Source of the DNA: Dehalococcoidales bacterium
GTDB taxonomy: Bacteria > Chloroflexota > Dehalococcoidia > Dehalococcoidales > RBG-16-60-22
NCBI GenBank assembly: GCA_034430495.1
Contig: DAOUEG010000048.1
Coordinates: 709 to 64,708, forward strand
DNA: 64,000 nucleotides
Reading direction: 5' to 3'
Position numbers and translations under genes: made by a program. Below the pieces are notes generated by a model. That model was not told where the DNA came from. It saw only the letters and a list, made by a program, of their open reading frames with translations, and did not search any database. This document shows positions 5,211 through 43,494 of this stretch, piece after piece; position 1 is the stretch's first letter, and each line of letters begins with the position of its first letter.

Positions 5211-5765
5211 CTATTTTACTATGGCGCTTATCCGCTTGAAAACCTCGCCGCAGCCTTGCTGCAGCATTTCGAAGAGCGCCATCTCCACATTGGTGGGGCT
5301 GACGCCGGCGGCGGCCATCCGCTGGTAGGCGGCGGTTTCGTTGGCGGGGTCGCGGGAGGCGCAGCCATCGGCGACCACGTGGACCTGGAAGTCCCGCCCG
5401 GCGAGGGCCAAAGCGGTCTGGTAGACGCAGATGTGGGTCTCGATGCCGGCCAGCAGCACCCGGCGCCGGCCGGAGGCTTCGAGGGCCGCCGTGAAGACGG
5501 GTTCGTCGCAGGCGGGGAAGCAGGTCTTTTCGATGGGTACCACGTCCGGGAGCAGCTCCCGAATCTCCGGCAAGGTCGGGCCGAGCCCCCTGGGGTACTG
5601 CTCCGTCAGGATGACCGGCAGCCCGAAGACCGCGGCCCCGCGGACCAGCTTGAGGACGTTCCGCAGGAGGCGGTCGCGGTCGTGCATGGCGGGGAAGAGC
5701 CGTTCCTGGTAGTCAATCAGGACGAGGACGGCCTCGTCGGGCGTGAGCCTGTCCGGTATGGTCAT
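5211..5765 (-). CDS. Isochorismatase-family cysteine hydrolase
   Basis: VLVLIDYQERLF..., LLAGIETHICVYQTALAL and VADGCASR are the typical isochorismatase/nicotinamidase fold motifs, including the catalytic Cys. Confidence 0.75.
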   Translation of the reverse strand: MTIPDRLTPDEAVLVLIDYQERLFPAMHDRDRLLRNVLKLVRGAAVFGLPVILTEQYPRGLGPTLPEIRELLPDVVPIEKTCFPACDEPVFTAALEASGRRRVLLAGIETHICVYQTALALAGRDFQVHVVADGCASRDPANETAAYQRMAAAGVSPTNVEMALFEMLQQGCGEVFKRISAIVK

Positions 5766-7673: not shown

Positions 7674-10454
7674 TCAGGCGGCAGCGCCGACCGGCTGCGG
7701 CGGAAAAGCGAACTTGCTCTTGGACTCGATGACGATGTCCTCGTCCTTGGTATCCACGACGACGTAGGACACATAGGTGTTCTCGGCTATCTTGAGCTCC
7801 GGCACCTTGCCGCGGGTGCCCTTGTTTTTCCCGGCGCCCTTTTCGAGCTCCCTGATAATCTTCTCCACGTCCCACTTGATGCTCTTGGTGGAGTAGACCA
7901 CCAGCTTGTCGCCGTCCAGTTCCGCCTGGGTAATCTCCGGCAGCGTCTTGGGGGCGTCCTCGGGGGCGTCCGTCATGAGCCGGGCCGGGATTTCCCTGAC
8001 GGCGGCAAGCACCGCTTCCCGGATATCCGGGTTCTTGATGGTGGCCCTGACCTCGAAGACGCGGCTGAACACCTTGAACTCCTCCCGGAGCACGGCCTCG
8101 GAGAGCTTGTCCTCGACCATCGTCTGGATGACGCGGCGGAGCGGGCGGGCGCCGTAGACCTCGTCGTAGCCCTTGTCGCCGAGGAGGTCCTTGGCGGCGT
8201 CGGTCACGCTGAGCTTGATTTCCTTATCGGCGAGCTGGGTGCTGACGTTGGCCAGCATCAGGTCCACGATGGCGCGTATCTGCTCCTTGGCGAGCGGGTG
8301 GAAGACCACGGTGCCGTCTACGCGGTTGAGGAACTCCGGCCGGAAGGCTTTCTTCAGCTCCTGGAGCAGGTTGTCCTTCATGCGGTCGTAGCTCTGCTCG
8401 CGGGCCTTGGCCTGGTCCGAGCGCTGGGCGAAGCCGAGCGCGGTTCCCTTGCGGATGGTCTCGGCGCCGATGTTACTCGTCATGATGATGACGCTGTTGC
8501 GGAAGTCCACGCGGCGGCCCTTGGCGTCCGTCAGGTGGCCGTCGTCGAAAATCTGTAGCAGCAGATTGAAGACGTCCGGGTGGGCCTTCTCGATCTCGTC
8601 GAGCAGGATGCAGCTGTAGGACTTGCGCCGGACAGCCTCGGTGAGCTGGCCGCCCTCGTCGTAGCCGACGTAGCCGGGCGGCGCCCCGACGAGGCGGGAC
8701 ACGGCGAACTTCTCCATGAACTCGGACATATCAATGCGGATGAGGGCGTCCTCGCTGCCGAACATGAACTCCGCCAGGGCCCGGGCCAGCTCGGTCTTGC
8801 CGACGCCGGTGGGGCCGAGGAAGATGAAATTGCCGATGGGACGGCGCGGGTCCTTGAGGCCGGCGCGCGCCCGGCGGATGGCCTTGGAGATGGTGTCAAT
8901 GGCCTCGTCCTGGCCGACGATGCGCTCGTGGAGGACGTCTTCCATGTTGAGCAGGCGGCTCGTCTCGTCGTCGGAGAGTTGGACGACCGGCACGCCGGTC
9001 CACATGCTGACAACCTCGGTGACGTCGTCCTTGCCGACCACGACATTGTCCTGGTCCTGCTCGTTCCGCCACTCGTCTTCCATCTGCTGGGCCATTTCCT
9101 CGATGCGGGTCTCTTCGTCCCGCTTCTCGGCGGCCACGTCGTACTGCTGGGTGGTGAGGGCCTCTTCCTTTTCCTTGCGGATGTTATCGAGCTCAGCCTT
9201 CTTCTCCTTGAGCGTGAGGGGCATGGTGTAGTGCTTGATGCGCACGCGGGAGGCGGCCTCGTCAACGAGGTCAATGGCCTTGTCCGGCAGGAAGCGGTCC
9301 GGGATGTAGCGCGCCGCCAGGTTGGAGGCGGCGGCCAGCGCCTCGTCGCTTATCTTGAGGCGGTGGTGCTCTTCGTAGCGCTCCCGGAGGCCGCGGAGGA
9401 TTTGCAGGGTCTCGTCCACGGAGGGTTCCTCGACGAGGACCTTCTGGAAGCGGCGTTCCAGGCCGGCGTCCCGCTCGACGTACTTGCGGAAGTCGTCCAG
9501 TGTGGTCGCGCCGATGCACTGGAGCTCGCCGCGCCCGAGCGAGGGCTTCAAAATGTTGGCGGCGTCCACGGCGCCTTCGGCGGCGCCGGCACCGACCATG
9601 GTATGGAACTCATCAATGAAGATGATGCAGTTGCCGGCGGTCTTAATCTCTTCGATGATTTTCTTGAGACGTTCCTCGAACTCGCCGCGGTACTTGGTGC
9701 CGGCCACGAGCGAGCCCATGTCGAGGGCGATGAGCCGCTTGTCCGCCAGGGTCTCCGGCACGTCGCCGCTGATGATGCGGTGGGCCAGCCCTTCCACGAT
9801 GGCCGTCTTGCCGACGCCGGGCTCGCCGACCAGGGCAGGGTTGTTCTTGGTGCGGCGGCTGAGGATCTGGATGAGCCGCTCGATCTCGTTATGGCGCCCG
9901 ATGACGGGGTCCAGCTTGCCGGCGCGGGCGGCGGCGGTGAGGTCCGTGCCGAGCTGGTCGAGGGCGGGGGTGCGGCTGGAGCCGCGCGGCAGGCGCTGCT
10001 TGCTGGGGGTGCTCTGGGTCAGGATGTGGCCCACCTCGGCGCGGGTGCGTTCCAGGGTGATGCCGAAGCTGTCCAGCACGCTGGCGGCGACACCTTCGCC
10101 TTCGCGGAGGAGGCCGAGCAGCAGGTGTTCGGTGCCGATATAGTTATGGCCCATCTGGCGGGCCTCGTCAATGGCAAGCTCGATGACCTTCTTGGCGCGC
10201 GGGGTCAGGCCGGTCTCGCCGGTGCCCGGCTTCTCGCCCCGGCCGATGATGAACTCCACCGCCGAGCGTACCTTGTTGAGGCCGATGCCGAGGTTGGTGA
10301 GCACCCGGGCCGCCACGCCCTCTTCTTCCCGCACCAGCCCGAGCAGGATGTGCTCGGTGCCGATATAGCTGTGGTTCAGGTTGCGGGCTTCTTCCTGGGC
10401 GATGGTGAGGACCCGGCGGGCTCGCTCTGAAAACTTCTCAAACCTGCTGGCCAT
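7674..10454 (-). CDS. clpC: ATP-dependent Clp protease ATP-binding subunit ClpC (926 aa, with a C-terminal extension)
   Basis: Two N-terminal Clp repeats ([13 protein letters not shown] / [13 protein letters not shown]), Walker A motifs [15 protein letters not shown] and [15 protein letters not shown], and a UVR-like middle domain. Confidence 0.95.
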
Positions 10455-10595
10455 AAATCAATCCTGTGCGTCCACGCGAAACGGTGCTGCTATCCTCATG
10501 TTATAACAAAACCAAAAGTGACGCAAGCAAAGAATAGCCTGATTGTGCGTGGGGGGCGGCATGCATATTGGGGAGGGTCAGGAAGGGGGAATACC

Positions 10596-10763
10596 GAACA
10601 GGCAGAAATAGCAAAGCCCCCTGGCGGTGGCATATTTTCCACAAGGAGTCGCCCCCTCAGTATCGTCTGCGCTGAAGCGTTTCACTTCCGTGTTCGGGAT
10701 GGGAACGGGTGGGACCGCTCCGCTAAAACCACCAAGAGGCTTAAAGCTCTTGTCTGCCTGTTC
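10596..10763 (-). repeat. 11-bp inverted repeat bracketing the 5S gene (candidate precursor processing stem)
   Basis: GAACAGGCAGA at 10596-10606 is the exact reverse complement of TCTGCCTGTTC at 10753-10763. The two arms flank the 5S coding segment. Confidence 0.5.
10618..10736 (-). rRNA. rrf: 5S ribosomal RNA
   Basis: The minus strand reads CUUGGUGGUUUUAGCGGAGCGGUCCCACCCGUUCCCAUCCCGAACACGGAAGUGAAACGCUUCAGCGCAGACGAUACUGAGGGGGCGACUCCUUGUGGAAAAUAUGCCACCGCCAGG. This closely parallels the E. coli 5S core (CCCACCUGACCCCAUGCCGAACUCAGAAGUGAAACGC). The terminal helix I pairs. Ends are +/- a few nt. Confidence 0.95.
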
Positions 10764-10796
10764 AGTTGTTAAGGGTCGCTTTCACAACCAATGACT

Positions 10797-10825
10797 ATTC
10801 TAGCATACTTTTCCGCCGTTGAAAA
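10797..10825 (-). promoter_or_regulatory. Candidate sigma70-type promoter for the 5S rRNA gene
   Basis: Minus strand: TTTTCA, then 17 nt, then an extended -10 (TGC TAGAAT), ~55 nt upstream of the mature 5S 5' end. Confidence 0.45.
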
Positions 10826-11123
10826 GAGGGTAACGCGGTGCCCCTGCAAAGAGGTGAAAAAATCCTCCCACGCGCGGAAAACCCAGCATGGGTAGCTAGA
10901 ACCGCCCTTGACAACCCTGAGGACACATGCTAGGTTAGGAGAGGGTTTTTTCCGGACAGGCACAGTACGCTCCGGCACCACGCCGGAGCGCCTCCCGTTA
11001 CCGGCCACAGCGTGAACGGGCGCCTTACGGATGCCCCCGTATGATGATGGAATGGTAAACATCGCCGAAGTTCCCACCATACCGCCCGCTTCTTCCATGA
11101 AACTGCCGCGAGGTGACAACGAC

Positions 11124-11414
11124 ATGAGCATAGAGCTGGTTCACATCGGTTTCGGGAACATCATGGCGATGAACCGGGCTATTGCCATCGCCTCGCCGAA
11201 CTCCGCCCCCACCAAGCGCACCATCCACGAAGGAAAAGCCAGCGGCATGGTGATTGACATGACCAGCGGGCGGCGGACCAAGGCCGTCATCTTCACGGAC
11301 AGCGGGCACATTATCCTGGCGGCCCTGGCGCCGGAAACCATCGCCAGCCGCCTGCAATCGAGCCGCAACGGGGGTCTCCGGCAGGACTCCCACGACGGTG
11401 ACGATGAACCCTGA
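11124..11414 (+). CDS. remA: RemA/YlzA-family (DUF370) regulatory protein
   Basis: [77 protein letters not shown] is near-colinear with Bacillus RemA. Conserved remA-gmk arrangement. Confidence 0.85.
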
Positions 11415-12030
11415 ACCCGACCTCTCCTCGTACCTCAACCCCCCACCGCTCCTCGTCATTCTCTCCGGGCTGTCCGGCGCCGGCAAGGACGCCGTCCTGG
11501 CCGAGCTCCGCAAGGACGGCCCGCCCCTGGAAATCATCGTGACGATGACGACGCGCGCCCTGCGCCCCGGCGAGCGGGACGGCGCGCCCTACCACTTCAT
11601 TTCCCGGGACCGCTTTCTCGCCATGCGCGACGCCGGTGAGTTCCTGGAATGGGCCGAGGTCTACGGGAACTACTACGGCAACTCCCGGTCCGAGGTTAGG
11701 GCCGCCCTGGACGCCGGCAAGGACGTCCTCCTCAAGGTGGACGTTCAGGGGGCGGCCACCATCAAGCAGCTCGTGCCGGAAGCCATCGCCGTTTTCCTGG
11801 CTACGCCGACGCTGGCCATGCTGGAGGCGCGGCTGCGCAACCGCCGGACGGAATCCTCCTCAGACCTGGCGCTGCGGCTGAAGACGGCCGCCCGGGAGCT
11901 CGAACAGCTGCCGCGGTTCGACTACGTGGTGATGAACGACGAGGGCGGCATAAAGCAGGCCGCCGCGGACGTCCGCGCCATCATCACGGCGGAAAAGGGC
12001 CGTATCGGGCGGCGCCGCCCCACCGTCTGA
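11398..12030 (+). CDS. gmk: Guanylate kinase
   Basis: P-loop [27 protein letters not shown] and [11 protein letters not shown]. Start is GTG 11398 or ATG 11404. Confidence 0.9.
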
Positions 12031-43418: not shown

Positions 43419-43494
43419 TGGTGGAGCCGGGGGGATTCGAACCCCCTACCTCCTGCTTGCAAAGCAGGCGTTCTCCCGAGTGAACTACGGCCCC
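43419..43494 (-). tRNA. tRNA-Ala (anticodon UGC), CCA encoded
   Basis: GGGGCCG-TA-GTTC-ACTCGGGA-GAAC-G-CCTGC-TTTGCAA-GCAGG-AGGTA-GGGGG-TTCGAAT-CCCCC-CGGCTCC-A-CCA. This is a full cloverleaf with the G3:U70 alanine identity pair and a TGC anticodon. Confidence 0.95.

Follow-up and report, generated by a model that had tools for sequence, protein, structure and literature searches.

The 64,000-nucleotide stretch of Dehalococcoidales DNA analysed here (hereafter the window) carries a complete 5S rRNA gene at positions 10619-10736 of the minus strand, which matches Rfam family RF00001 over model positions 1-120 without truncation (87.2 bits against a gathering score of 38, E = 2.8e-17). The original prediction had placed a clear 5S gene at 10618-10736 (minus strand) and had proposed an Rfam 5S_rRNA search; run on the 64-kb window, that search returned the full-model match above the gathering score and confirmed the gene, with the 10618 end one base off (10619). 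No LSU or SSU rRNA reached the Rfam threshold anywhere in the 64 kb, and blastn with Chloroflexota 16S and 23S queries gave zero matches in the window at E<=1e-10, which bears out the earlier claim that no 23S gene lies upstream of the 5S. Where a canonical 16S-23S-5S rrn operon has a same-strand 23S gene just upstream of the 5S, the window has a divergent remA (11124-11414, plus strand; Pfam RemA-like, 101 bits), with gmk beyond it (11398-12030, plus strand; confirmed by Pfam). Downstream and co-oriented with the 5S is clpC (7674-10454, minus strand), encoding a 926-aa protein with two Clp_N domains, AAA, AAA_lid_9, AAA_2 and ClpB_D2-small; a 164-nt spacer separates its ATG (10454) from the 5S. 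ClpC residues past approximately 795, where ClpB_D2-small ends (the last ~130 codons, roughly 7674-8070), match no Pfam family; this tail is conserved in the clade, and tblastn alignments to L039, L065 and L096 (related loci are denoted by L numbers) reach residues 923-926.

Besides the 5S, the 64 kb contain one further RNA gene, a tRNA-Ala(TGC) (43419-43494, minus strand), which is solitary, with no rRNA close by. Since the 16S-23S spacers of the canonical Chloroflexota operons L010 and L046 hold tRNA-Ile(GAT) and tRNA-Ala(TGC), this tRNA gene may be another orphaned part of a fragmented rrn operon.

The 5S gene is preceded by a promoter of its own (10797-10825, minus strand), in which a consensus scan recovered a -35 element TTTTCA (10825-10820), a 17-nt spacer and an extended -10 element TGcTAGAAT (10805-10797), with TG in front of the hexamer TAGAAT (10802-10797). 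This is the TTTTCA-17-TGcTAGAAT promoter that had been predicted, and it is conserved in seven related assemblies: the pattern CTTTTC...TaTGcTAnAAT is invariant in alignment A1, which comprises the window and seven relatives. It is also present in L121, a locus from a metagenome scan that is 81% identical to the window over 1.4 kb and has the same layout. Transcription is predicted to start near 10790. The 300 nt upstream of the 5S are ordinary unique intergenic DNA with conserved promoter elements and no rRNA similarity. A candidate remA promoter on the plus strand, TTGACA-17-TGcTAGGTT (~10895-10930), is conserved in L121 and did not reach the consensus-scan threshold; its TGCTAG core recurs in the -10 element of the divergent 5S (inverted repeats I2 and I4).

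Two elements occupy the leader between this promoter and the 5S. A small hairpin (10774-10789, minus strand; predicted fold GGUUGU-GAAA-GCGACC) abuts the 5' side of a boxA-like antitermination element, CCCTTAACAACTGAACA (10759-10775, minus strand), and is therefore in a boxB-like position. All clade members have a hairpin just 5' of boxA, with stem sequences that differ among L121 (GGUUGU-GCGA-ACAGCC), L065 (UGACU-GGAA-AGUCA) and the group L084, L099, L043 and L096 (GCUU-GAAAA-AAGC), and we infer that it is functional. The boxA assignment draws on motif count, conservation and the match to rRNA leaders. TTAACAACTGAA occurs once in the window, where 0.04 occurrences are expected, and CCCTTAACAAC lies ~20 nt past the 5S -10 element in the window, L121, L065, L084, L099, L043 and L096. 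TTAACAACTGAACA (10772-10759) and the boxA that precedes 23S in L010 and L069 agree at all 14 nt, and the window element is also close to the 16S leaders of L010 and L037. The motif reads CCCTTAACAACTGAACAGG upstream of the window 5S, CATTAACAACTGAACAAGG and CTTTAACAACTGAACATGG upstream of 23S in L010 and L069, and CCTTAACAACTGGATAG and CCTTGACAACTGAATAG upstream of 16S in L010 and L037, respectively. The E. coli boxA is GCTCTTTAACAA, to which the window motif is similar. The window element lies between a promoter and a structural RNA and matches the rRNA leaders of its own lineage. As a 118-nt gene has little obvious need for antitermination, boxA on the 5S leader could be an inherited relic.

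The flanks of the 5S gene are complementary to each other. The exact 11-bp inverted repeat originally noticed at 10596-10606 / 10753-10763 is real and extends to 14 bp (10593-10606 / 10753-10766; 14 nt, 93% complementary, one mismatch). The two 45-nt flanks pair with z = -5.1 relative to shuffles, and the predicted 208-nt precursor has an MFE fold of -88.5 kcal/mol (z = -5.9), in which helix I is followed by a 6-bp extension, 3 bp and a 14-bp distal helix, with two internal loops between. The extension is continuous with helix I and is formed by AAGCCU (10737-10742, minus strand) and GGCUU (10614-10618, minus strand), together with a pair between G10619 and U10737. The distal helix consists of the leader strand ACTGAACAGGCAGA (10753-10766, minus strand), which overlaps the 3' part of boxA, and the trailer strand TCTGCCTGTTCGGT (10593-10606, minus strand).

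The helix I extension covaries, with GCC/GGC in the window and GTC/GAC in L121, L043, L084 and L096, and class-wide the real flank pairs form a mean of 4.2 bp, compared with 2.7 bp for cross-paired flanks (p = 4e-10). L121 retains the 9-bp core (GAACAGGCA/TGCCTGTTC) of the distal helix with no informative changes. A metagenome search for closer relatives yielded this one locus alone, which does not suffice to test the distal helix for covariation. The 14-bp helix is absent from L065 and more distant relatives and was seen only in the window and, as the core, in L121. Because L065, L043, L096, L084 and L099 have the helix I extension alone, followed by a T-tract, the distal helix appears to be a young feature of the window's own lineage, and the conservation of its 5' arm could reflect constraint on boxA instead of on pairing.

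In the canonical operons L010, L069 and L046, the long 23S leader-trailer helix uses the bases just past boxA (CAACTGAAC...) as its 5' strand, and the equivalent post-boxA bases in the window pair with the trailer beyond the 5S. The use of the same boxA-adjacent nucleotides as in 23S processing helices, together with the core kept in L121, supports the processing role that the original prediction had suggested for the stem. We rejected the possibility that it is a literal relic of the 23S processing helix left by clean excision of the 23S gene. In the canonical layout the 5S comes after both strands of that helix, so the trailer strand past the window 5S must be new, and the parts that could have been inherited or copied would be the leader strand and boxA only.

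A terminator scan found no adequate intrinsic terminator (GC-rich hairpin plus U-tract) in the 164-nt spacer past the window 5S. The T-tract that follows the gene is degraded (GGCTTTGCTATTTCT) with no terminator after it, and the one weak terminator-like match in the spacer, a 5-bp stem at 10541-10524, overlaps the clpC promoter region. Part of the spacer (10524-10593, minus strand), likewise without an intrinsic terminator, is C-rich and G-poor (43% C and 13% G on the transcribed strand) and might possibly serve as a Rho-loading site. The spacer also holds a promoter for clpC (TTGCTTGCGT ... TATAAC; 10500-10530, minus strand) ~50 nt before the ATG. Its pattern (TTGCtT/TTGACC, 15-17 nt, TATAAn) aligns in the window, L065, L118, L084, L099, L062, L078 and L039 (alignment A2) and is also present in L121; a strict consensus scan did not pick it up. 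Because this sigma-70-type promoter is conserved, clpC need not rely on the 5S promoter and is apparently independent of it. No CtsR-type heptad repeat was seen by eye in the 5S-clpC spacer. The earlier claim that no terminator separates the two genes and that read-through is possible thus holds as to the lack of a good terminator, while clpC would not need read-through, having a conserved promoter of its own. Transcription may plausibly continue at some level from the 5S into clpC, all the more so if boxA renders the polymerase resistant to termination.

An exact-sequence look-up of the window's ClpC matched no record. Relatives were sought by scanning one genome per species with a 37-nt 5S core, which gave at least 120 loci; 90 Chloroflexota loci were among the matches listed, mostly metagenome-assembled genomes (MAGs) filed as Dehalococcoidia. 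The closest among the matches listed (L065, L118, L084, L099, L043 and L096) are 90-93% identical in the 5S and 73-90% identical in ClpC, and the best ClpC and 5S matches among those listed (L065, L118, L084 and L099) are Dehalococcoidales/Dehalococcoidaceae MAGs. By these matches the window most likely derives from a member of the Dehalococcoidia and, with its lone 5S gene, shares the fragmented rRNA genes of that class. The divergent remA-gmk pair is also found upstream of the 5S in L043, L065, L084, L096 and L099. Among the loci listed from this one-core seed, which the synteny proportions describe rather than the whole class, 23S is absent upstream of the 5S in 72 of the 80 Chloroflexota loci with at least 600 nt of upstream sequence, and a co-oriented clpC start lies downstream, directly or after rpsA, in 45 of the 55 loci with at least 2.6 kb of downstream sequence. 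The downstream ClpC orthologues in relatives share 65-90% identity. Across all listed loci in which clpC was found, the 5S-clpC distance is below 500 nt in 28 and includes an insert of 1.2-3.2 kb in 31; in 30 of the latter the insert is a co-oriented rpsA (ribosomal protein S1, four S1 domains). Loci with rpsA in this position include L001, L002, L004, L011, L016-L018, L023, L026, L035, L040, L050 and L055, among others. No S1 homologue was found within the 64 kb of the window. Other placements of the rRNA genes were also observed: the 5S of L037 (1179-1296) lies 420 nt upstream of a 16S gene (from 1719), and in L060 a 16S gene (49-1542) lies ~4 kb upstream of the 5S (5621-5738), with 23S undetected between them. 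The original prediction had called unlinked 5S genes uncommon, which is correct for bacteria in general (PMC8172020) but not for this class, given the predominance of lone 5S genes among the listed loci. A lone 5S is unusual for bacteria generally and, from these comparisons, normal for this lineage.

Among 56 aligned lone 5S genes from relatives, compensatory changes occur at 11 of the 36 predicted pairs of the three-helix-junction 5S fold, and the Rfam score of the window 5S is as good as those of its relatives. Since the fold has been kept through such changes, the lone 5S genes across the class appear to be working genes and not pseudogenes. Many relatives have a terminator or a T-tract right past the 5S, and many other Dehalococcoidia have a canonical terminator ~25 nt past it. 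In ~21 Dehalococcoidia loci the -10 hexamer ends 6-10 nt before the 5S 5' end, which makes these genes nearly leaderless. Eleven such loci (L003, L011, L018, L036, L049, L073, L079, L082, L100, L108 and L120) have CATACT or GATACT as the -10 hexamer, ending 6-7 nt before the 5S, and most of them have a canonical GC hairpin and T-run ~25 nt past the 3' end; the primary transcript of these mini-genes would nearly equal the mature RNA. The 5S-proximal promoters and terminators of relatives argue that the 5S is an autonomous unit class-wide.

A few relatives retain a 23S gene. A sarcin-ricin-loop motif (AGTACGAGAGGACC) gave false negatives in the test for upstream 23S (L017 reads ...GGACTGG), and Rfam and blastn with 23S/16S queries were used; these detected 23S in front of the clpC-adjacent 5S in some Dehalococcoidia-type loci. 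The order is 23S-tRNA-Met-5S-rpsA-clpC in L017, a record filed as a complete chromosome, and in L040, while L046 reads 16S-tRNA-Ile-tRNA-Ala-23S-tRNA-Met-5S, followed by a 2.2-kb gap and clpC. In L039 (JAUYDJ010000143.1, 5345-6072) the order is 23S, a 90-nt spacer, 5S and clpC; the 90-nt 23S-5S spacer holds CTTCTC-17-TGcTAAAAT, the same promoter as that of the lone 5S genes. L039 could represent an intermediate step in evolution, or else its 6-kb contig could be mis-joined. L072 (QIDL01000017.1) is also 23S-linked; it is filed under a Gammaproteobacteria MAG, but the 3' end of its 23S shares 99% identity with the one in the Dehalococcoidia chromosome L017, and misbinning of the contig is probable. 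A tRNA-Met(CAT) lies between 23S and 5S in the linked operons of L010, L017, L021, L040 and L046. The Chloroflexia-filed MAGs L010, L021 and L069 have canonical operons, with no clpC downstream where the downstream sequence suffices. Because a few relatives keep the order 23S-(tRNA-Met)-5S-(rpsA)-clpC, the lone 5S is probably the stranded 3' end of a fragmented rRNA operon. The simplest reading, in which we infer the direction of change, would be that (rpsA-)clpC adjoined the 3' end of the rrn operon in the ancestor of the clade.

Taken together, the locus is probably a working 5S gene that is transcribed independently and arranged like a miniature rRNA operon. An extended -10 sigma-70-type promoter would give rise to a transcript of ~200 nt, whose ~53-nt leader would carry a small hairpin and a boxA like those that precede 16S and 23S in the phylum. 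Through boxA, NusB/NusE and further antitermination factors would be brought to RNA polymerase. The nucleotides after boxA would pair with the trailer and, with the 6-bp helix I extension, would form a leader-trailer helix that encloses the 5S; this helix would be a likely substrate of a double-strand-specific RNase (RNase III or M5-like), leading to release of the pre-5S. clpC, 164 nt downstream, would be expressed mainly from its own promoter; as the window offers no good terminator, some transcripts from the 5S promoter are likely to extend into it. The 5S-(rpsA)-clpC adjacency would be old in Dehalococcoidia and would represent the former 3' end of a 16S-23S-tRNA-Met-5S operon, from which the 16S and 23S genes moved away, and the stranded 5S would then have used promoters of its own.

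An alternative is that the 5S and clpC, with rpsA in other lineages, form one transcription unit, in which a boxA-modified polymerase reads through from a strong rRNA-type promoter, ClpC and S1 synthesis is coupled to ribosome synthesis, and the 5S is cut from the 5' end of an mRNA. The adjacency and co-orientation in 45 of the 55 listed loci, where upstream neighbours vary, would fit such a unit, as would the boxA in the 5S leader, the lack of a convincing terminator in the 164-nt spacer of the window, and the C-rich, G-poor composition of that spacer, at which Rho might halt transcription that lacks antitermination. Nevertheless, clpC has a conserved promoter of its own, rpsA in relatives has its own TGcTATAAT element, a canonical intrinsic terminator or T-tract directly follows the 5S in many relatives, rpsA can be inserted or missing with the arrangement undisturbed, and seven listed lone-5S loci have neither clpC nor rpsA downstream, which leads us to regard a single unit as unlikely. 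We are more doubtful that 5S-(rpsA)-clpC is a conserved regulatory unit of Dehalococcoidia in which read-through ties S1 and ClpC to rRNA output and the helix excises the 5S.

The lone 5S could also be a spare or decaying copy, with the working 5S behind a 23S gene elsewhere in the genome; the 5S census here is confined to the 64-kb window, and a 23S-linked 5S exists in a few relatives. In those relatives, however, the linked 5S is the same clpC-adjacent gene and there is no second copy, and each Dehalococcoidia record filed as a complete chromosome has a single 5S-core match among the matches listed. The Rfam score of the window 5S on a par with its relatives, the compensatory changes that maintain the fold of lone copies class-wide, and the maintenance of the promoter, boxA and helix also make a spare copy very improbable. 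Metagenome bins are often mis-assembled at rRNA regions, which raised the concern, shared by the original prediction, that a collapsed or mis-joined rRNA operon had produced the arrangement. Yet the layout of remA divergent from a 5S that is followed by clpC recurs in L043, L065, L084, L096, L099 and L121, each from a separate project, many records filed as complete chromosomes carry a lone 5S with clpC behind it, and the 300 nt upstream are unique intergenic sequence with conserved promoter elements and no similarity to rRNA. The recurrence in many independent assemblies, complete-chromosome records included, means that an assembly artefact can be considered effectively excluded on comparative grounds. 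The miniature rRNA operon remains our preferred reading.

The leader of the window 5S follows the plan of the canonical rrn leader of E. coli, with the shared order of promoter, small hairpin, boxA and 5' strand of the helix (PMC10250234, PMC4807359), and its boxA matches the 16S/23S leaders of the same phylum. In E. coli, boxA and boxC lie in or beside leader-trailer helices that are cleaved by RNase III (PMC10250234). In contrast to canonical operons, whose 5S lacks a separate boxA and promoter and is cut out of a 23S-5S precursor, the helix in the window encloses the 118-nt 5S only. Resemblances to another processing system can also be seen. In pre-5S processing of the B. subtilis type, RNase M5 acts on an extended helix I. 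The window 5S is similar to such a substrate in that its helix I is extended by covarying base-paired flanks, and differs from it by the added 14-bp distal helix, which is typical of RNase III substrates.

Separately located 5S genes are known from Leptospira and Thermoplasma. Separation of 23S and 5S is very unusual in bacteria, and separately located 5S genes have been described in CPR bacteria and archaea (PMC8172020). These are likewise apart from 23S and need transcription signals of their own; in the literature we found, coverage of which was incomplete, no boxA leader, leader-trailer helix or conserved protein-gene neighbour is described for them. In Dehalococcoidia, 16S and 23S genes that are not linked to each other form a conserved trait, which is also known from other phyla (Brewer et al., bioRxiv 10.1101/705046). 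The arrangement described here involves the same lineage and the same phylogenetically conserved fragmentation of rrn operons, and goes beyond that report in that the 5S is also detached from 23S and its position by (rpsA-)clpC is conserved; neither "5S rRNA" nor "23S-5S" appears as a term in the text of the preprint. Within incomplete full-text coverage, we found no published description of 5S-clpC or 5S-rpsA-clpC linkage, or of boxA on a lone 5S. While unlinked rRNA genes are a known phenomenon, the class-wide synteny and the presence of boxA on a 118-nt gene appear to be new.

In conclusion, our findings suggest that in a large environmental class the 5S gene is routinely detached and has kept the same protein-gene neighbours. 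Genomes of this kind will be misjudged by annotation pipelines and completeness checks built on a 5S gene beside 23S. As antitermination is of little use to a 118-nt gene, the locus also offers a test of whether the role of boxA and Nus factors lies in RNA folding and processing instead. If the 5S and its downstream genes were to form one transcription unit after all, an rRNA gene would be the processed 5' module of a protein-coding operon, and cells would make a ribosomal protein and the main AAA+ unfoldase in step with rRNA output. At least two kinds of private 5S unit appear to exist, namely near-leaderless mini-genes and, in the lineage of the window, a gene with a full miniature rrn leader that includes boxA and a processing helix. 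Such loci could provide a natural series for studying how rrn operons break up and how the three rRNAs are kept at equal levels without co-transcription.
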